Shown here: positions 30,371-51,604 of the stretch, in pieces
Layout of the letters: each line of letters starts with the position of its first letter
How positions within the stretch are numbered: position 1 is the stretch's first letter
From: Candidatus Bathyarchaeota archaeon
GTDB lineage: Archaea; Thermoproteota; Bathyarchaeia; Bathyarchaeales; Bathycorpusculaceae
Length of the DNA stretch: 64,000 bases
Direction: 5' to 3'
NCBI GenBank assembly: GCA_963717465.1
Contig: OY970340.1
Span: 1,472,001-1,536,000 of the forward strand
Notes under the pieces: model-generated
Database searches by the model: none
Seen by the model: only the letters and a program-made list of their open reading frames with translations
Told to the model about the DNA's origin: nothing
Made by a program: the position numbers and the translations under genes

Positions 30371-32902
30371 TTATTGCTTTGAATTACCTGCTGATTTAGA
30401 ATCAACTGCAGTTGTGGGGACTTCAGATTTAGGCTCAGCCGCAATTGTTTTATCTTTAAGCATGTTGTCCAAGAATGGTTTTAGTTTAGTGTTTTCTGCT
30501 TGTATCTTTTCTTTGCCGAGTGTTTTCATGTTGCCGTCCATTTCTTTGATTAATTCAGCGAACCTTACTCCTTCAGAAGCTGAAATGTATTCAACTCGGA
30601 ACCTTTCAGAACTCAATCCCAGCTTAGTCAACACATTCTGTAGTGTGTCTGTTCGTGCCTTCATCTCCACATTCCCACTTATATAATGGCAATCGTATGG
30701 AAGATGGCATGCTCCAATCAAAACCATGCCTGCGCCCAATCGGTAAGCTTCCAAAACAAAATTACGAGCAACTCTTCCAGAGCACATTACACGGATTACT
30801 CTTACGCTTGGCGAGTACTCAAATCTGCTTGTTCCAGCCAAGTCTGCCCCTGCATAACTGCACCAGTTACACAGGAAAGCCAAAATTTTTCCTTCAGGTT
30901 TTTCCTCAAGTGCAGCTCGAATCTGAGCCATAATCTGGGCGTCAGTGAAATGCATTTGAGTTATGGCATCACTTGGGCATTCTGCAACGCATGTTCCGCA
31001 CCCATGGCAGTTTGCAGTGGTAACTGTGGCTGCCTCGTTTTCTTTTATGGTTATGGCTTTGTATGGACATTTTTCAGCGCAAATGCCGCACTTAGCTTTT
31101 ACGTTTTTGCATTTTGTTGGGTCTACAATTGATATGAGAGGTTCAATTTTCCACGTGGGCTTCATGAGCACTGTTGCTGCCCGTGCTGCTGCGCCGCTTC
31201 CTTGCGTGACGCTTGCTGGGATATCTTTAAGTCCTTGGCAGGCTCCTGCGAAGAAAATGCCATCAGAAGCAGCGTCCATCGGCTTAAGTTTCGGGTGGCT
31301 TTCCATGAAAAACCCGTCCTGGCCTCTTGTCAAGTTAAGTATGCGAGCAACGTTTTCCGTGCCTTCTTTAGGTATCGCAGCTGTGGCTAAAACTACCATG
31401 TCAACTTCGACGTTAACCATTTTTCCAAGAACCAAATCCACCGCATTTATCGACAGGTTGTTAGTTTTTGGGTCTTCCTCAATTTCAGTCGGTACACCCT
31501 TGATGAAATTCACCCATAAATTTCTGGCTCGAGTGTAGAAATCCTCGTATCCTTTTCCTGGACTGCGAATGTCAATGTAAAAAACATAGACTTCTATGTC
31601 TTGCTTGTACTTCTCTTTAAGCTGAATCGCATGCTTTAGACTGTACATGCAGCAAAAATTGGAGCAATATGAGTATTTTCTGATGTCTCTGGATCCGACG
31701 CATTGAATGAACGCTATGCGGTCAGGTTTTTTTCCATCCGATTGCCTGATAACTTTGCCGCCTGTTGGTCCAGCAGCCAATATTAGTCTTTCAAACTCAA
31801 GCGACGTAATTACATTGGGGTATTTGCCGTAACCAAGCTGTGGCTTATCAAGCGGAAAATACACGTCATATCCAGTCGAGACTATTATCGCGCCAACATC
31901 AAACTCGACATCCTCAGGCTTCTGCTCAAAGTCAATCGCATCCCGCGAACCACAGACGTCGACGCATTTTGAACATTCGATACAGTAATCGCGATTAATC
32001 GTGTAAACAAGAGGCACCGCCTGGTCACAGGGCACCGAAATTGCTTTTCGGACTCCAAGATTCATATCCCACGGGTTCGGGTACTCAATTGGGCAGGTAT
32101 CTCTGCATTCTCCGCATCCAGTGCAGTTCTGCGCGATAACGTAACGAGGATTTTTGCGAACCTTCACATGAAAGTTGCCGATGAATCCTGACACGCCAAC
32201 TAAATCTGCAAAAGAAATAATTTGGATGTTAGGGTGACGACCAACATCAACCATTTTTGGTCCTTCAATACAAATGCTGCAGTCAAGCGTTGGAAACGTC
32301 TTGTCCAGTTGAGCCATGTGTCCGCCGATGCTTTCGCTTTTTTCAACAAGGTACACTTTGATGCCCATTTCTGCTAAATCTAAAGCAGCGCTTATTCCAG
32401 CAATTCCACCGCCAAGCACCATTGCCTTGTTCGTAACTGGAACTTCAATTCTTGTTAACGGTTGAAGCAATCGGGCTTTTGCAACCGCCATCTTTATTAT
32501 ATCTTTAGATTTTTCCATGGCTTCTTCAGGCTGTCCAGAATGAGGCCACGAAGAAAACTCGCGGATGTTCGCTATCTCAAGCAGGAACGGGTTTAATCCA
32601 GCCTCGGAAATTGTTCTCCTAAAAGTCTGCTCATGCATTCTTGGGGAGCAGGCAGCCACTACAACACGGTTAAGCTTGCTTTCTTTGATTGCTTTGCGTA
32701 TTATTTCTTGTCCAGGATCAGCGCATAAGTACCGGTTTTCTTTAGCAACGACGACATCCGGCAACGTTTTTGAGAATTTCACAAGAGCCTTTATGTCCAA
32801 TGTTCCAGCAATGTTCAATCCACAATGACAAATGAAAATGCCTATCCGTGGTTTTCCTATCTTTTGCTCAGGCGCTACATCAATTTCCGACGCGAGATTC
32901 AC
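30371..32902 (-). CDS. hdrA: HdrA-MvhD fusion, all-cysteine copy
   Basis: [31 protein letters not shown], ferredoxin inserts, C-terminal MvhD (CNWCSYAGADLAG, RVMCSGR, CH...CHY). Confidence 0.93.
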   Translation of the reverse strand: MNLASEIDVAPEQKIGKPRIGIFICHCGLNIAGTLDIKALVKFSKTLPDVVVAKENRYLCADPGQEIIRKAIKESKLNRVVVAACSPRMHEQTFRRTISEAGLNPFLLEIANIREFSSWPHSGQPEEAMEKSKDIIKMAVAKARLLQPLTRIEVPVTNKAMVLGGGIAGISAALDLAEMGIKVYLVEKSESIGGHMAQLDKTFPTLDCSICIEGPKMVDVGRHPNIQIISFADLVGVSGFIGNFHVKVRKNPRYVIAQNCTGCGECRDTCPIEYPNPWDMNLGVRKAISVPCDQAVPLVYTINRDYCIECSKCVDVCGSRDAIDFEQKPEDVEFDVGAIIVSTGYDVYFPLDKPQLGYGKYPNVITSLEFERLILAAGPTGGKVIRQSDGKKPDRIAFIQCVGSRDIRKYSYCSNFCCMYSLKHAIQLKEKYKQDIEVYVFYIDIRSPGKGYEDFYTRARNLWVNFIKGVPTEIEEDPKTNNLSINAVDLVLGKMVNVEVDMVVLATAAIPKEGTENVARILNLTRGQDGFFMESHPKLKPMDAASDGIFFAGACQGLKDIPASVTQGSGAAARAATVLMKPTWKIEPLISIVDPTKCKNVKAKCGICAEKCPYKAITIKENEAATVTTANCHGCGTCVAECPSDAITQMHFTDAQIMAQIRAALEEKPEGKILAFLCNWCSYAGADLAGTSRFEYSPSVRVIRVMCSGRVARNFVLEAYRLGAGMVLIGACHLPYDCHYISGNVEMKARTDTLQNVLTKLGLSSERFRVEYISASEGVRFAELIKEMDGNMKTLGKEKIQAENTKLKPFLDNMLKDKTIAAEPKSEVPTTAVDSKSAGNSKQ

Positions 32903-33157: not shown

Positions 33158-33706
33158 ATGACTCAAGCACCTGTACCAAATAATAAAGAGCCCATAAAAT
33201 CTTCTGAGATGGACCCGAATTTTAAGCGTGAACTCATGAAAATGCATGGGAGCGAAAAAATTCTCAGATGTTACCAGTGTGGAACTTGCACTTCTGATTG
33301 CCCTGTAGCACGCTATAGTGATTCTTACAGGCCGCGAACATTAATTCATATGGCTAAATTAGGCCTAAAAGACCGAGTTTTAAAGAGTGACACTTTATGG
33401 TTATGCGCTGCTTGCTTTACATGCACTGACCGTTGTCCACAAGGTGTTGAAGTAGCAAATGTCATTCGGGTACTGCGCAATTTAGCCGTTGAAAACGGAT
33501 GCGTCCCCGATGTTTTCAAGGAGCAAACCGCAAGCCTACTTGATTCAGGGTACGCTTACAAAATTCCAGAGTTAAGAATCAAAAAACGTGAAACAACAGG
33601 GTTGCCACCCTTGCCAAAAGGAAACGCGGAAAACTTGCGTAAAGTGCTCAAAGGCGTTAAATTTATAGATAACATTCAAAAACCGGTGGAGTCACATGGT
33701 CAATAA
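33158..33706 (+). CDS. hdrC: Heterodisulfide reductase subunit C
   Basis: CYQCGTCTSDCP and LWLCAACFTCTDRCPQ. Confidence 0.92.
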   Translation: MTQAPVPNNKEPIKSSEMDPNFKRELMKMHGSEKILRCYQCGTCTSDCPVARYSDSYRPRTLIHMAKLGLKDRVLKSDTLWLCAACFTCTDRCPQGVEVANVIRVLRNLAVENGCVPDVFKEQTASLLDSGYAYKIPELRIKKRETTGLPPLPKGNAENLRKVLKGVKFIDNIQKPVESHGQ

Positions 33707-34577
33707 ATTCCTGTTTTTCCTCGGCTGCGCTATTCCTTATCGTGTGTCGTCGTACGAGATTTCGGCACGAAAAGTTCTCTTTAAGCTTGGCGTTGAATTG
33801 GTTGAGATGCCTGAATTCAATTGCTGTGGCCTTCCGTTTGATCCGGTTAGCCACGAAACAATGCTTATTCTTGCAGCAAAGAATTTGGCGTTGGCTGAGC
33901 AGCAAAAACTGGACGTGTTGACTTTATGCCCTGGATGCGCTGGAACGCTAAAGAAGGTTAACAAGAGTCTGAAAGAGGATAAAGTGTTAAGAGCAGAGAT
34001 TAACGCTCACCTAAAAGAAGCAGGATTGGAATTCAAGGGAACCATCAATGCTAAACACTTGCTTCAAGTGCTCAAAGAAGATGTGGGATACGATAAAATT
34101 AAGGCTGCAGTTACTAAGCCGTTGAGTAACTTAAAGGTTGCTGAACACAATGGCTGCCACATTTTAAGACCAAAAGAGTATATTGGGTTTGATGATCCAG
34201 AAGATCCTAAGACACTAAGAGAACTGATTGAAGCTACGGGTGCAACATGCCTTGATTACATGGATAAAACTGAATGCTGCGGAGCACCAAGCGTAGGAAT
34301 CAACGATAAAATTGCGCTTCAATTAGCAAGAGACAAACTTAACCACGTGAAAATCGTTGAAGCCCAAGCATTAATCACGATTTGCCCGTTCTGCCACATA
34401 ATGTACGACACAAACGAGCTAAGAATCGAAAAAATGTTCAACGAAACCTACGGCATCCCCATAATCCATTACCCACAACTGCTCGGGTTAGCTATGGGCA
34501 TGACTCCCGAAGAATTAGCATTCAACGAGCTACGAGTCAACGCATTAAAACTCCTAAACAGCCTCAAAAATCAATAA
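33696..34577 (+). CDS. hdrB: Heterodisulfide reductase subunit B
   Basis: FLGC, NCCG, CPGC, HNGCHILRP, ECCG, CPFCH CCG domains. Confidence 0.92.
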   Translation: MVNKFLFFLGCAIPYRVSSYEISARKVLFKLGVELVEMPEFNCCGLPFDPVSHETMLILAAKNLALAEQQKLDVLTLCPGCAGTLKKVNKSLKEDKVLRAEINAHLKEAGLEFKGTINAKHLLQVLKEDVGYDKIKAAVTKPLSNLKVAEHNGCHILRPKEYIGFDDPEDPKTLRELIEATGATCLDYMDKTECCGAPSVGINDKIALQLARDKLNHVKIVEAQALITICPFCHIMYDTNELRIEKMFNETYGIPIIHYPQLLGLAMGMTPEELAFNELRVNALKLLNSLKNQ

Positions 34578-46255: not shown

Positions 46256-47493
46256 AAAACATGACGGTAATAACAGTTTTAGAAAATAGTTTAAGGATTG
46301 CTTGGAAGGACATTAGAGCGATGAGTCGAATGAAGGGAGTAATGGTGATGCTTATTCTTATGCCGATATTTATGATGGTTATGGTTGGCTTCATTTATCC
46401 AAGCGGCAGTTCCGTTGATATGAGTAGCTTAAAAGTTCAAGTTATCAACCAAGATATAGGATACAATAATGTTAGTTTAAGCGGGATTTTTACTTCAGCC
46501 TTTACTGTAGCTAATAATAATAGTACTAAAATGCAATTATTCACTGGTGCTAATGGCACAAATGAAGATACACTTAAGGACAGCATTAAGCAAGGTGATT
46601 TTGATGCAGGCATTATTATTCCTGAGAATTTCACCTATTGTATCCTGACTAAGCAGAAAGTAAACATAACTGTCATTACAGATAATTCTAATCCGCAAAT
46701 CAGTCAATATTCTAGTGCCGCGTTGCAAGGATTAGTGGGAGCTGGCTGGGAAGGACTGATGATTGCACCAACTGTGAATCAGCAAATTGCACAGTTGTTC
46801 AGTTATTACAATCTGACAGACCCTAATGCAGGGTATTACATGGCACCTTATGCAGTCGCTTCAAGTGGTGTTGTAGGTGGTGCTAACACAAACTACTTCG
46901 AATTTATTGCTCCTGCCATGATAATGATGACTGTAATGTTCAGTGTAATGACTAATCTGCCGCAAGCTATAACTCATGAAAGAGAATTGGGCACGTTAGA
47001 TGGCATTATGGTTGCTCCGATTAATAGACTTTCAATTATAGTTGGAAAAACATTGTCTTCACTTGTGTATGGCTTAATTCAGGGCTTAATAATAATGGCA
47101 TTATCAATAGGTTTATTCGGAGTTACCATACAGGGAAACATTTTGCTCGTATTTGGTTTACTGTTTCTTGGCGTTTTCAGCTTTGTAGGATTAGGTATAG
47201 CTTTAACTTCACTTGCAAAAGATCAGCAGACAGCCTCAATGATAATGATGACATTGACATTCCCGATGATGATTCTCAGTGGCATATTCTTCCCGATAAA
47301 AATGATGCCACAATTCATGCAATATATCAGTGATTGCCTGCCGTTAACTTACGCTGCGGATGCCATGAGGAAAGTTATGGTGTTAGGTGCAAATGTTTCA
47401 CAGATATCAACAGACCTGATCGTGCTAATTGTGTTCGGCATAGTTATGCTCGTAATCGCAGTGCCAATATTTAGAAGGATGATGACAAGATAA
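46252..47493 (+). CDS. ABC-2 exporter permease
   Basis: ERELGTLDGIMVAP, LSGIFFP, PLTYAADAMR. Confidence 0.9.
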   Translation: MKNMTVITVLENSLRIAWKDIRAMSRMKGVMVMLILMPIFMMVMVGFIYPSGSSVDMSSLKVQVINQDIGYNNVSLSGIFTSAFTVANNNSTKMQLFTGANGTNEDTLKDSIKQGDFDAGIIIPENFTYCILTKQKVNITVITDNSNPQISQYSSAALQGLVGAGWEGLMIAPTVNQQIAQLFSYYNLTDPNAGYYMAPYAVASSGVVGGANTNYFEFIAPAMIMMTVMFSVMTNLPQAITHERELGTLDGIMVAPINRLSIIVGKTLSSLVYGLIQGLIIMALSIGLFGVTIQGNILLVFGLLFLGVFSFVGLGIALTSLAKDQQTASMIMMTLTFPMMILSGIFFPIKMMPQFMQYISDCLPLTYAADAMRKVMVLGANVSQISTDLIVLIVFGIVMLVIAVPIFRRMMTR

Positions 47494-47919
47494 ACTAGAA
47501 AGGCAGCTACATGCAAGCAACATTTTAAATTTCTTTTTTTTATTTCTTTCCGTACCATTAAAACTCGCGAGCACTATCGAGCTTTTTTCTTATGGTACGT
47601 CTAACTTTTGCTAACACGCGCGGCGCTCGTTAGCTGCAGAATTATAGGTTTTTACTAAACTATGCATTTCTGAATTATTTTAACCGGTTACTCTTTTTTC
47701 TTACTTTTTCCTAGAACCTGTTCCTCGCACTCTTGTTTAGCACCATTTTACGATTGTTTAAGCCTTTATCGATTTGCATTCGCCGCTAATCTGAACCATA
47801 AAGAACAAGTCGAAGCTATTATTGATTAAGAAAATTGAGATAGTCATGTAGTGCTATTTAATAAAGGCAAGCAAGCAAATCAAGATACTAATTATTAAGC
47901 AAAAAAGTTGGTAGTTTAT

Positions 47920-50484
47920 TTAGACGGGTTTTCCCCCGTCGGTAGCTTTGGCAACTGGAGCAACAGGTTTTGCCACAGCTTGGTCGGCTGGTTTAGCTGC
48001 TGGGGCTGCTGCTGGAGCTGGGGCTGCTTTGCGTTTTAGCATGTTCTCTAGTGTTGGTTTAAGTTTTGCGTTTTCGGCTTTGATTTTGTCTTTTCCCAGT
48101 GTCTTAATTTGCTCGGTCATTTCCTTAACTATATCGGCGAATTTCGGTCCTTCAGCTGATGAAACATAATCAACCCTGAGTCTTTCTGGGCTCAACCCGA
48201 GCTTTTGAAGCATGCCAGATAAGGCATCCATGCGTGCTTTCATCTTTACGTTTCCAGAGATATAATGGCAATCGCTGGGAAGATGGCAAGCGGCAATCAG
48301 TACCCCTGCTGCTCCTAACCTAAATGCTTCCATAACGAAGTCCTTGTCCACTCGTCCAGTACACATTACTCGAATAGACCGTGTCATTGGCGGGTATTCA
48401 AGCCGGCTCGTCCCTGCACGGTCCGCGCCGGCGTAACCTCACCAGTTACACATAAACGTCAGTATCTTATCTTCCGGGTCTTTTTCTAGCGCACCCCTGA
48501 TTTGTGAGAATATTTGTTCATCCGTAAAGTGCATCTGAGTTAAAGCATCTTGCGGGCATTCTGCAACACATGTTCCACAACCGTGGCACATAGCCGCATT
48601 GATCTGGGCTGGTTGTCCCGGATTCGCAGTTATGGCTCCAAAGGGGCAGCTTTTTACGCATATTCCGCATTTTGCTTTTGCGTTTCTGCACTTGGCTACG
48701 TCAACTATCGAGACGATGGGTTCTATCAACCATTTGGGTTGAGAAAGGATGGTTGCAGCTCGTGCTGCTGCGCCGCTTCCTTGTGATACGCTGTAGGGTA
48801 TGTCTTTTGGTCCTTGGGCAGCGCCTGCTATGAATACTCCATCCATAGGTGTATCGATTGGTTTGAGTTTTGGGTGGCTTTCCATGAAGAACCCGTCTGA
48901 TCCTCGCGTTATGTGGAGGATGCTGGCTAATTCTTGGGCTCCTTTGCTGGGTATTGCGGCTGTGCTTAACACAACGAGTTCCGTTTCGAGATCGAGGGGT
49001 AGTCCCAGCGCCATGTCTTCTGCTCGTACAATCAAGTTTTTGGTCTTTGTGTCTTCAATTATGTTGGATGCTTTTCCCCTGATGAAGTTGATTCCCATTT
49101 CACGGGCTCTTCGATAGAATTCTTCGTAGCCTTTGAAGGGAGTTCGCATATCCATGTAGAGAATGTAGACTTCCACATCATCATGGTAATGTTCTTTCAG
49201 AAGGATGGCTTCTTTGAGCCCATACATGCAGCAGAAACCTGAACAGTACTCGAACTTGTTTATGTCCCGTGAACCGACGCAATTAATGAAAGTGACGCTT
49301 TTCGGTTTCTTTCCATTGGACGGGCGGATCATGTGTCCACTTGTTGGGCCGCCTGCTGTGATAAGTCTCTCAAACTCCAAAGCTGTAATTACGTTATCGT
49401 ATTTTCCATAGCCGTACCTGGCGTCGTCATAAGGCATATAAAAGTCGCAACCGGTTGTTACGATGATTGCTCCAACTTCCAATTCAACTTCTTCCGGCTT
49501 CTGATCAAAATTGATAGCTTCACGTGCACCACAAGCATCAACGCATTTGAAGCACTCTATGCAGTAATCCCTGTTTATTGAGTAGATAAGAGGCACTGCC
49601 TGATCAAACGGAATGGAGATAGCTTTTCTTAAACCTAAATTCATCTCAAACTCATTAGGATACTCTATTGGGCAAGCATCTCTGCATTCACCACAACCAG
49701 TACATTTTCCAGCCATAACGTACCTTGGGTTCTTGCGAACCTTCACTCTGAAATTGCCCACAAACCCCTCCACGTTGAGGACGTCCGCATTGGATATTAC
49801 TTGGACCTTAGGATGGCGATATACTTCCACCATCCTAGGTCCTTCTATTCATATGCTGCAGTCTAAAGTGGGAAAAGTCTTGTCGAGTTGTGCCATGTGA
49901 CCTCCTATGCTCGTGTTCTTCTCGACAAGGTATACTTGGAACCCCATGTTCGCCAAATCAAGAGCGGATTGGATGCCGGAAATGCCTCCGCCGATAACCA
50001 AGGCGTTTTTTGTCACCGGCACCTCCATGGTTTCAAGAGGCGCAAGTAACCTCGCTTTGGCAACAGCCATCCTTACAATGTCTTTTGCTTTTTCCGTGGC
50101 TTCTTTCGGAGTGCTGGGATGGCACCACGAAGAGAATTCACGTATGTTGGCCATTTCAAAAACATAAGGATTTAACCCTGCTTCACTTACGGTTTTCCGA
50201 AATGTTGGCTCATGCATTCTTGGGCTGCAAGCGGCTACAACGACGCGGTTTAGTTTGTGTTCTTTTATTGCTTTTCTGATTTCTTCTTGTCCGGGGTCGG
50301 CGCATGTGTAACGGTTCTCTTTAACTAAAACAACGTCAGGTATCGTTTTAGCGTATTCGACTACTTGTTTAATGTCAATTGTGCCAGCGATGTTTAAGCC
50401 GCAGTGGCAAACAAAAACTCCCACTCGTAAAGGTTCTGGTTGTTTGGCGGATTCAATTGGTTTCTGTGTTTCTTTATTGCTCAT
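47920..50484 (-). CDS. hdrA: HdrA-MvhD fusion, putative selenoprotein (854 aa; in-frame TGA at codons 212 and 682)
   Basis: ORFs 49849-50484, 48439-49833 and 47920-48387 share one frame; TLDCSI[TGA]IEGP and CNW[TGA]GYAGAD align to Cys codons of the paralog at 30371-32902. Confidence 0.85.
48402..48432 (-). promoter_or_regulatory. Candidate in-CDS SECIS hairpin for the MvhD-domain UGA
   Basis: GCCGGC-G-CG-GA-CC-[GUGCA]-GG-GA-CG-A-GCCGGC, starting 6 nt 3' of the UGA (48439-48441). Confidence 0.6.
49803..49842 (-). promoter_or_regulatory. Candidate in-CDS SECIS hairpin for the HdrA-domain UGA
   Basis: GGACCUAGGAUGGUG-[GAAGUAUAU]-CGCCAUCCUAAGGUCC, 15 bp with one bulged A, starting 6 nt 3' of the UGA (49849-49851). 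Confidence 0.72.
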
Positions 50485-51416
50485 TTTGAAACCTCTTCAA
50501 CAAATAATCTTCTTTCTACTGCTTCCTTTCTTTTCGAGGCAGCAGCAGCTTTCAATTCTTTAATAGCCTCAACAGGTGAAGTAAGCCTTTCTAAGGATTT
50601 ATTCCATGTCCCTGAATGAATTGGAGTATGGTATATTTTGGTTCTTTTTAACCTTAGGGCTTCATCAACAGGACAAACCACTTTGCACGCACCGCAGAAA
50701 TCGCAAAAAACATCGTTCACATGAACTTTTTTATCCTCGCCAAGCGTTAAGGCTCCTGGTATGGGGCAGACGTCAAGGCAATCTCTGCAACCTTCAGGGC
50801 ATTTCTCCTGATCAATCTCTAATTATCCCTTCAATGCACTTTTTAACTTTAATCACTCCCGGTGCACATTTGAACTCGCAAACTCTGCAGGTTGGGCAAT
50901 ACTCTTTTTGAATGTCAAGGTTAACTCGCACATGTTTTTTTTCGTGTGGTGGCAATACATCTAGATTTTCCATTAGTTTGCCGTCGGATCAGTTTTTATA
51001 ACTTTAATTAAAGATAGAGGACATGCGCTTTCACACTCGACGCATTCCTTTGGGCACTGACGTGAATTTACCGTAATATCGCGGATGAGTGATGGATAGC
51101 TTTCTTTTGACAACACAGCAAGATCATGCTTGCCATTTAACGTCACTTTAATAGCTCCATATGGACAGGTGACGTCGCAAATACCGCAAAAACTGCATTT
51201 CGCTAAGTCAATGTCGACTTTGGCTTTCTTTGTTTTTTCTCCCTGCACCTTTGGTTGCTTTTCGAGTGTTATTACACCTTTTGGGCAGGCTAAACTGCAT
51301 ATTTGGCAGCCTACACACCGCTTTTTATCTAACATTAGCTTGAGATCCTTTACTGGCAAAATCCACTCTAAAGTTAAAGAATCTGCGGAGTTTTTCTTTA
51401 TTGTTTTTAAAGGCAC
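50481..51416 (-). CDS. Polyferredoxin (FwdF/MvhB-like), frameshifted; stop overlaps the start of the TGA-containing hdrA
   Basis: Six CxxCxxCxxxCP-type motifs across the frames. Confidence 0.8.
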
Positions 51417-51604
51417 TTACTTTAATCCTCCAATCGATTGTTTGCTCGTAACGGGTGCTCGCATTTGTTCGCAAACACCAACCAAACAGCAAGTCATTCG
51501 AACATCCCGCGCAGTTTTTAAGGGAAGTATTTTAGAATATAAATATTCCTTGCGGTAACATTGATTCCGCATGACTGCAAAAGAAACTCCGGTATCCTAA
51601 TTTT

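Follow-up and report, generated by a model that had tools for sequence, protein, structure and literature searches.

The 64-kb window analyzed here (the whole stretch of DNA, 64,000 nucleotides, from a Bathyarchaeia genome) carries on its reverse strand a gene for an HdrA protein fused to MvhD, hereafter called Sec-type hdrA2, whose reading frame is interrupted by two in-frame TGA codons (table 1). Coordinates are positions in this window unless preceded by G000, the source genome, or C1, its contig. The window belongs to a single contig of 3,053,889 bases in a genome estimated to be 88% complete and 1% contaminated, and the host is a peat or soil Bathyarchaeia archaeon with an archaeal-type pathway for selenocysteine (Sec, or U in protein sequences). 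Among the public runs listed, one peat-metagenome DNA run contains 0.05 of the sampled sequence words, and no RNA run contains any of them.

When TGA is translated as U, the gene forms a single frame of 854 residues followed by a TAA stop, in which U212 and U682 are the sole departures from translation table 11. Under the standard code the same frame falls into three open reading frames (ORFs), namely 49849-50484 (211 aa), 48439-49833 (464 aa) and 47920-48387 (155 aa). An open frame of this kind could, taken alone, reflect a change of TGA into a sense codon throughout the genome. However, TGA is an ordinary stop in the window, where it ends the genes for padR, an ABC ATPase, NucS and orf79, and it terminates 350 of the 1381 genome ORFs with at least 250 codons; convincing in-frame TGAs are, moreover, limited to the Cys-aligned sites of three families. 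Global reassignment is thus refuted by stop-codon usage and we give it a vanishingly small probability. A previous interpretation of this DNA made from its letters alone (hereafter the sequence-only reading) had described one frame whose sole interruptions are TGAs at codons 212 and 682, and had considered TGA a normal stop elsewhere, without global change of the code; we recovered the same codons, coordinates and contexts, and padR and the long ORFs agree with the second statement.

The best NCBIfam match of the gene product is HdrA2 (NF040770), which is the HdrA-MvhD fusion type, with 1074.4 bits over residues 20-800 (profile 1-775 of 777). Its residues 18-666 are collinear with residues 3-650 of the HdrA chain in PDB 5odc_A (E 5.4e-248), from the N-terminal Fe-S domain and the FAD domain to the inserted and C-terminal ferredoxin domains, and include Fer4 and FAD-binding (flavin adenine dinucleotide) Pfam domains, while Pfam FlpD (MvhD; PF02662) matches residues 674-797 over its entire profile (159.4 bits, profile 1-123 of 123), spanning U682. 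The MvhD chains available in PDB (5odc_D, 7bkb_F and 9sw2_D) align over residues 671-806, 5odc_D over residues 671-804, and U682 corresponds to Cys16 of 5odc_D, inside the CCNWC motif at the N-terminus of the MvhD domain. The cysteines of this motif are, we presume, ligands of the [2Fe-2S] cluster of MvhD. Because the surrounding alignment is ungapped, with an offset of 15, U212 is equivalent to Cys197 of 5odc_A. Across the two HdrA protomers, this cysteine of one serves as a ligand of the partner's N-terminal [4Fe-4S] cluster (PMC9012536); in the Hdr-Vhu-Fwd structure of M. maripaludis the HdrA position is occupied by Sec197, and a Cys-Sec pair has been proposed as electron relay between FAD and a distal cluster (PMC13518236). 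Judging from these similarities, the product of the Sec gene is most likely subunit A, a flavin and iron-sulfur protein with MvhD fused at its C-terminus, of a soluble Hdr-like complex that is electron-bifurcating or confurcating. The host lineage is most likely a non-methanogen.

That the two TGAs are true stops, leaving either three polypeptides (an N-terminal piece of HdrA, the HdrA core and MvhD) or a pseudogene in decay, is what the three ORFs given by standard gene callers would imply, and ATG codons do occur 5 and 18 codons after the TGAs; yet the TGAs lie exactly at the conserved Cys197 of HdrA and Cys16 of MvhD, a break at codon 212 would fall inside the FAD domain, and the match to the MvhD profile starts 8 residues before U682. 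The comparison of 25 fetched orthologous loci bears on the same question. Ten of them are 84-86% identical to the Sec gene on either side of the TGAs, and all ten retain TGA at both sites with no other stops, two (L035 and L036) being also frameshifted between the sites. In the other 15 loci, site 212 is occupied by Cys codons in nine and by TGA in two Thermincola loci, with four unaligned, and site 682 by Cys codons in all. Since ten of ten loci from separate assemblies carry both TGAs, chance and sequencing error are excluded; sequencing error, a pseudogene and three separate genes were all rejected on the basis of the ortholog TGAs and the conserved Cys positions. The sequence-only reading had considered sequencing error a poor explanation, had proposed an alignment with relatives at both sites and had reported Cys codons there in a paralog of the same window: these points hold, because ten independent assemblies share the TGAs, TGA is matched by TGA or Cys without decay and the translated paralog reads ...LDCSICIEGP... 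and ...LCNWCSYAGAD.... Within the genome, noisy BLAST alignments place Cys at site 212 in eight paralogs and at site 682 in five. The frameshifts of L035 and L036, together with truncated copies of a molybdopterin oxidoreductase discussed below, suggest indel errors typical of metagenome-assembled genomes (MAGs) built from long reads, which fits an earlier remark on broken genes in this DNA.

The closest HdrA loci in named genomes are labelled as Bathyarchaeia or Bathyarchaeota MAGs, consistent with the Bathyarchaeia-like host that had been proposed from the letters. Two of the closest loci have bacterial labels, Candidatus Sulfotelmatobacter sp. (L028) and Limnocylindrales bacterium (L031), but their contigs are probably mis-binned because they cluster inside the tight Sec-type archaeal clade. 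To place the dual-TGA form within the class, we surveyed an even sample of 301 genomes, of which 241 contain an HdrA2-like match with E <= 1e-100 (a further 371 weaker matches were left out), scoring at most three HdrA2 candidates per genome. Among these scored candidates the dual-TGA form occurs in G000, G217, G229, G232 and G187 only. The copy of G187 is broken (2 TGA, 2 TAG and 1 TAA), as a pseudogene would be. SepSecS is present in nine of the 301 genomes, including all five with the dual-TGA form; the form was thus seen only in SepSecS-bearing genomes, a further point against true stops, which we regard as extremely improbable. The other SepSecS-positive genomes (G110, G220, G037 and G103) belong to other families and have MopB and MvhD homologs without internal TGA.

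A quick maximum-likelihood tree (IQ-TREE) was built from 47 rows, after removal of sequences that were too short (L035, L036 and L038), that did not align (L037, L044, L047 and L049) or that probably duplicate others (L056 and L057). The 10 Sec-type rows group in a single clade with a support of 100 in the Shimodaira-Hasegawa-like approximate likelihood ratio test (SH-aLRT). It branches inside a larger Bathyarchaeial clade of 39 rows (SH-aLRT 99), the remainder of which are Cys-type, with the bacterial Sec-HdrA of Thermincola lying outside, and therefore it is not a recent bacterial import. The Sec form is a minority, lineage-restricted variant linked to the presence of the Sec pathway.

The genome contains the components of this pathway in archaeal form. 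Two tRNA-Sec genes, G000:C1:845693-845779 (+) with 71.8 bits and G000:C1:2829638-2829725 (-) with 61.8 bits (Rfam gathering score 47), both have a 9-bp acceptor and a 4-bp T stem (9/4 fold), with a U:U mismatch at the eighth acceptor pair. SelD (240 bits) has its own in-frame TGA at codon 14 (...VHG-U-SCK...), SepSecS (488.9 bits) adjoins the first tRNA-Sec and two ORFs of 732 and 730 aa combine PSTK (Pfam KTI12) with GTP_EFTU, D2 and aSelB_III domains. The PSTK parts of these fusions score 151 and 134 bits, below the stand-alone cut-off of 290.5, and match Pfam KTI12 at 1e-34 and 6e-39. SelA was not found in the genome (best score 20.5 bits vs. a cut-off of 267.9), and the winged-helix domain of SelB (PF09107) has no match genome-wide, the fusions included. 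The machinery that the sequence-only reading had proposed to look for (tRNA-Sec, SelD, SelB and either PSTK with SepSecS or SelA) is therefore present, SelA excepted, and together with the ortholog TGAs it supports the earlier idea that this lineage makes selenoproteins, here one polypeptide with two Sec residues. It is nearly certain that the locus is a single working gene for a selenoprotein, in which an archaeal-type pathway reads through both UGAs, and we infer that selenium is inserted at both codons.

The second PSTK-aSelB fusion, at G000:C1 about 2827363-2829555 (-) (L014:46-2238), adjoins the second tRNA-Sec and is 54% identical to the first. Its GTPase motifs are altered, from GHVDHGKT to GHCKHGKT and from DLPGH to EMPGN; the protein may be unable to hydrolyse GTP and may serve another purpose. 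In each of the five Sec-using relatives searched, one fusion gene was seen, that of G232 being split by a stop. In relatives Sec-type hdrA2 has the genes for SepSecS and PSTK-aSelB, and in some cases that for SelD, no more than a few kb away, in what may be called a Sec island (G187:C5, G229:C9, G232:C14 and G217:C23), and in L026, L030 and L035 it is followed downstream by a near-identical tRNA-Sec; the same Sec genes are dispersed in G000, at 845, 952, 1520 and 2829 kb. ARAGORN additionally reported a 98-nucleotide 'tRNA-???' with a four-base anticodon, ccgg, at G000:C1:904785-904882 (-), possibly an intron-containing tRNA or an artefact.

A different possibility is that the UGAs are decoded partly or wholly as Cys, either by SepCysS acting on Sep-tRNA-Sec or under selenium limitation, so that the protein would often be in the Cys form. 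Crosstalk of SepCysS with Sep-tRNA-Sec has been discussed for archaea, with the PSTK-aSelB fusion proposed as a guard (PMC8762117), and among close Sec-using relatives SelD alternates between a Sec (TGA) and a Cys (TGC) type, the Cys type being found in G187 (L106) and G232 (L107) on comparison with G000, L103, L104 and L105. Given that the full Sec pathway is retained and SelD is itself a selenoprotein, Sec would seem to be the intended residue, and decoding as Cys is very unlikely.

Within the coding region, each UGA of Sec-type hdrA2 is followed after a short spacer by a stable hairpin (hairpins 1 and 2 in table 1), and these hairpins are tightly associated with the UGA. The structure of hairpin 1 is kept in all Sec orthologs and hairpin 2 is nearly invariant. 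When the codons of the window gene are aligned with those of eight orthologs free of frameshifts (thus excluding L035 and L036), synonymous codon identity in 15-codon windows has a gene mean of 0.68 (standard deviation 0.09) and peaks at 0.92 in codons 216-230 and 0.97 in codons 681-695, the next-highest windows elsewhere in the gene reaching 0.84 and 0.83. All 11 Sec-type MopB (molybdopterin-oxidoreductase) paralogs of the genome have a similar hairpin after their UGA, with CCCACG/CGUGGG as basal stem. When these 11 hairpins are aligned, 89% of the cells are paired vs. 23-47% in slid registers, double-sided changes occur at five pairs and none of 500 shuffles attains the observed covariation score, a result that is supportive and not decisive because the paralogs are related. 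The three hairpin types have no common sequence but a common plan, consisting of a 6-nucleotide spacer, a G/C-rich basal stem of 6 bp, a bulge or mismatch, an upper stem and a loop of 5-7 nucleotides.

Such a hairpin is present at 13 of the 14 Sec sites of the genome (HdrA-212, MvhD-682, 11 MopB and SelD). The folding energy of nucleotides +7 to +60 is -17 kcal/mol or lower at 12 of these 14 sites. Among the controls, 1000 Cys codons and 1000 random in-frame codons reach this threshold in 1.4% of cases each, and 350 terminal TGAs in 1.1%. At site 212 the Sec loci (13, of which two are probably the same genomes counted twice) range from -20.7 to -27.7 kcal/mol, whereas 30 Cys loci range from -5.6 to -16.9; the pairing there is partly due to amino-acid differences between the Sec type (PRMV...RHPKVQ) and the Cys type (PKMV...RHPNIQ). 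At site 682 the Sec loci lie between -21.8 and -22.3 kcal/mol vs. an average of -14.2 for 31 Cys loci. The Cys-type paralog of the window has no hairpin after its Cys codons, with energies of -12.0 and -13.5 kcal/mol. From this evidence the two coding-region hairpins are probably cis signals for read-through, one per UGA.

We then considered whether the signal could instead be a conventional selenocysteine insertion sequence (SECIS) in the 3' untranslated region (UTR), in a genuine selenoprotein gene whose coding-region hairpins would serve ribosome pausing for cofactor insertion, mRNA stability or local help. All archaeal SECIS described in two recent sources are in untranslated regions (PMC13188914, PMC11227280), and the 3' UTR of the gene contains a loose Methanococcus-like motif (table 1), of a kind that is rare in the genome (36 loose matches and one strict match genome-wide). 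This loose pattern, however, is missing from the 3' UTRs of the 10 orthologs and from the 600 nucleotides after the other ten Sec genes, and the strict GAA_A motif does not occur in the 600 nucleotides after any of the 11 Sec genes. An Rfam scan of positions 46500-51500 at E <= 10 returned no SECIS family, only five matches at chance level (E 0.99-7.5). No conserved block emerged when the 3' UTRs of 11 orthologous genes were compared directly, the regions being unalignable and followed by different genes (a second hdrA, or tRNA-Sec). A listing of stable hairpins in the 3' UTRs of 11 Sec genes revealed no common element either: nine complete MopB Sec genes lead directly into T-rich tracts, and SelD is followed by the PSTK-aSelB gene within about 60 nucleotides. 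In the 3' UTRs tested we thus found no conserved SECIS of the untranslated kind (3', rarely 5') that characterizes archaea. Furthermore, a role of the hairpins unrelated to UGA leaves unexplained their fixed spacing of 6 nucleotides at 13 of 14 UGAs and their absence from Cys-type orthologs. SelD, which has its UGA without a proximal hairpin, would be more easily accommodated by a 3'-UTR signal, but on the whole we deem this alternative unlikely. The same convergent intergenic region contains a second long hairpin, recognized by eye at 47545-47600 (-), with an 8-bp stem CGUACCAU/AUGGUACG around an inner CUCG...CGAG.

Several observations weigh against a selenoprotein gene recoded through its coding-region hairpins. 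The HdrA2 score remains slightly below the curated cut-off of 1100, with the architecture complete. The contrast between Sec and Cys forms is weaker at site 682, where Cys-type loci also fold fairly well (minimum -20.8 kcal/mol). SelD of G000, G217 and G229 has no hairpin after its UGA (-6.8 to -9.6 kcal/mol), and therefore either the rule has exceptions or SelD depends on a different signal; the SelD of G110, from another family, does have a hairpin after its UGA (-18.6 kcal/mol). As the homologs of G110, G220, G037 and G103 lack internal TGA, this SelD is the one independent test of the hairpins that those genomes offer. The sequence contexts that are independent of each other number no more than three in the hairpin evidence, namely HdrA-212, MvhD-682 and the MopB family; the 11 genes of the last are paralogs, and the Sec-type orthologs are close kin (84-87% identity). 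No known SECIS-binding domain was found by Pfam in the PSTK-aSelB fusions, and the loose Methanococcus-like hairpin does lie in the 3' UTR of the gene itself. With these points taken into account, we still consider it highly probable that the best overall explanation is a Sec gene of HdrA2 type served by an archaeal Sec pathway, with the coding-region hairpins as the likely cis signal.

According to this explanation, Ser-tRNA-Sec with its 9/4 fold would be phosphorylated by PSTK and then converted by SepSecS with selenophosphate supplied by SelD, and the resulting Sec-tRNA would be delivered by aSelB, here fused to PSTK. UGA-212 and UGA-682 would be decoded as selenocysteine, placing Sec212 at the relay or ligand position of Cys197 and Sec682 in the cluster motif of MvhD. 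The cis signal for each UGA would be the coding-region hairpin that starts 6 nucleotides after it, with its G/C-rich basal stem of 6 bp, a discontinuity, an upper stem and a 5-7-nucleotide loop. Its reader might be the fused factor itself or, in G000, the second fusion paralog with altered GTPase motifs.

Bacterial SECIS elements are hairpins of the coding sequence located immediately 3' of the UGA and bound by the winged-helix domains of SelB, in organisms in which Sec is made by SelA. The hairpins reported here resemble them in lying in the ORF right behind the UGA, with one element per UGA; they differ in that neither the winged-helix domain of SelB nor SelA is found in the genome. These features suggest a bacterial-like SECIS position combined with archaeal machinery. 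In the Sec-HdrA of Thermincola, a bacterial gene, the hairpin (-11.7 kcal/mol) begins at about +21 and has unrelated sequence, those of the Bathyarchaeial gene being larger and earlier. We lean, a little less firmly than for the hairpins as cis signals, towards regarding Bathyarchaeia with the PSTK-aSelB fusion as having a third arrangement of Sec recoding, with enzymes of archaeal or eukaryotic type, a cis hairpin of bacterial topology and no shared 3'-UTR SECIS.

Sec decoding as such has been described before in related archaea. Diverse Bathyarchaeota possess a Sec system with PSTK and aSelB in one ORF (Mukai et al., Front Genet 2022, PMC8762117; review PMC9499178), and a wetland lineage has a tRNA-Sec with a U6:U67 mismatch (PMC8762117), which we take to be the U:U at the eighth acceptor pair reported above. 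The present genome shares with that system the lineage label, the PSTK-aSelB fusion and SepSecS, and differs from it, as described in the text of the paper, in having two fusion paralogs and two tRNA-Sec; the same text, its Fig. 9B and other figures aside, contains no 'HdrA', no 'SECIS' and no UGA-proximal hairpins. A TACK-group lineage with SPS, HdrA, VhuD and VhuU as selenoproteins was published in 2017 (PMC5424206). The archaeal Sec users named in the sequence-only reading (Methanococcales, Methanopyrus and some Asgard) are therefore out of date, and the novelty that it implied is reduced, since Sec use and the PSTK-aSelB fusion in Bathyarchaeota, HdrA and VhuD as selenoproteins and HdrA-MvhD fusions were all known.

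The closest parallels are with methanogens and Lokiarchaeota. Methanococcales and Methanopyrus have Sec in the same families, with HdrA Sec197 equivalent to position 212 and Sec in the VhuD/MvhD module (PMC13518236). Their HdrA and VhuD are separate proteins, VhuD having two Sec separated by about 50 codons, and one GAA_A-type SECIS lies in the 3' UTR of each gene (PMC4989117, PMC13188914), whereas here HdrA and MvhD are fused, the MvhD part has a single Sec and there is no conserved 3'-UTR element. In Lokiarchaeota, too, several UGAs are spread over about 2 kb of HdrA-VhuD and always include the canonical HdrA site (Mariotti et al. 2016, PMC4989117), but the two genes are adjacent and unfused, and one eukaryote-like SECIS after VhuD has been proposed to serve up to six UGAs (PMC4989117); in the present gene each UGA has its own adjacent hairpin. 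The HdrA2 or 'type Ia' HdrA-MvhD fusions of methane-metabolising archaea (PMC12054007) have the same domain order and match over nearly the full length, with the difference that our host is not a known methanogen and the score of the gene product falls just below the family cut-off; in the text of that study selenocysteine appears only as the cause of broken hdrA calls in Methanocaldococcus.

Recent work places archaeal SECIS elements in untranslated (3') regions (PMC13188914, May 2026; PMC11227280), and the text of the former review does not mention Bathyarchaeia. How aSelB, the ribosome and SECIS communicate in archaea is still considered unexplained (review PMC9499178). We did not find a description of a Bathyarchaeia SECIS in the literature searched, to which figures, supplements and further papers may add. 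The new element in this system appears to be the UGA-proximal recoding signal.

The surroundings of the gene are summarized in table 1. A pair of hdrC-like and hdrB-like genes diverges from the Cys-type paralog; next to Sec-type hdrA2 no hdrBC genes were found among the window ORFs analyzed with Pfam.

Elsewhere in the genome, eleven MopB paralogs of approximately 775 aa have a TGA at one common site (PNFGS.AAQ.U.GPT), presumably the position of the Mo/W ligand; the copies with TGA at 617083, 2799134 and 132694 are apparently truncated. In NCBIfam they score highest with PhsA (253 bits) and Fdh-alpha (234 bits), in both cases well below the cut-offs. For an archaeon this is a large family of Sec enzymes. 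Scans for further selenoprotein genes based on codon usage and hexamers produced 312 and 139 candidates, many of which are antisense or adjacent-gene artefacts, and the families accepted were HdrA, MopB and SelD only; the scans being noisy, the list of selenoproteins is therefore incomplete. A hairpin-guided scan of 1706 in-frame TGAs mainly recovered the known sites, plus one candidate (C1 TGA 2823439). It belongs to a frame of 426 codons bounded by TAA/TAG at G000:C1 2824267-2822987 (-), with TGAs at 2823439 and 2823619, the context ...DFMMS-U-GCPMGH... and a post-TGA hairpin of -17.3 kcal/mol.

Table 1. Coordinates of Sec-type hdrA2, its signals and neighbouring genes in the window, and of the MopB TGA codons elsewhere in the genome
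Feature	Position	Strand	Remarks
Sec-type hdrA2 (HdrA fused to MvhD)	47920..50484	(-)	854 codons, two in-frame UGA
Start codon ATG	50482-50484	(-)	
Stop codon TAA	47920-47922	(-)	
UGA codon 212 (Sec)	49849..49851	(-)	equivalent to HdrA Cys197; context ...TLDCSI*IEGP...
UGA codon 682 (Sec)	48439..48441	(-)	equivalent to MvhD Cys16; context ...FMCNW*GYAGAD...
Hairpin 1	49803..49842	(-)	40 nucleotides, -24.3 kcal/mol, 6 nucleotides after UGA-212 (spacer AUAGAA), in the coding sequence; proposed recoding signal
Hairpin 2	48402..48432	(-)	31 nucleotides, -20.8 kcal/mol, 6 nucleotides after UGA-682 (spacer GGUUAC), in the coding sequence; proposed recoding signal
Loose Methanococcus-like 3'-UTR hairpin	47610..47634	(-)	285 nucleotides after stop; 6-bp stem, GA/GU internal loop, three G/C pairs, 3-nucleotide loop; folding energy -11.9; role uncertain
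Cys-type hdrA2 paralog	30371..32902	(-)	843 aa, Cys at both sites, Pfam architecture as in the Sec gene
hdrC-like	33158-33706	(+)	Pfam Fer4_8/CCG domains (hdrC/hdrB pair)
hdrB-like	33696-34577	(+)	Pfam Fer4_8/CCG domains (hdrC/hdrB pair)
orf79	50481-50720	(-)	79 aa, no family; 4-nucleotide overlap with the hdrA2 start; same-strand upstream
2x[4Fe-4S] ferredoxin	50973-51416	(-)	Pfam; same-strand upstream of the Sec gene
MopB TGA positions, G000:C1	617083, 1211628, 1822504, 2055182	(+)	
MopB TGA positions, G000:C1	2495990, 2378454, 1134713, 480584, 132694, 124642, 2799134	(-)	

Standard pipelines split Sec-type hdrA2 and about a dozen other genes in genomes of this kind, and this splitting understates the repertoire of electron bifurcation and molybdopterin enzymes in soil and peat archaea that are very abundant. 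If functional, the UGA-proximal hairpins make the system a variant of known archaeal Sec decoding; if true, this arrangement would contradict the textbook view that the SECIS of archaea and eukaryotes lie in untranslated regions, and would bear on whether the UGA-proximal or the UTR arrangement is ancestral. Archaeal enzymes, a PSTK-aSelB fusion and a hairpin behind each UGA together constitute a compact natural system, the cis and trans components of which can be tested jointly in Methanococcus reporters.

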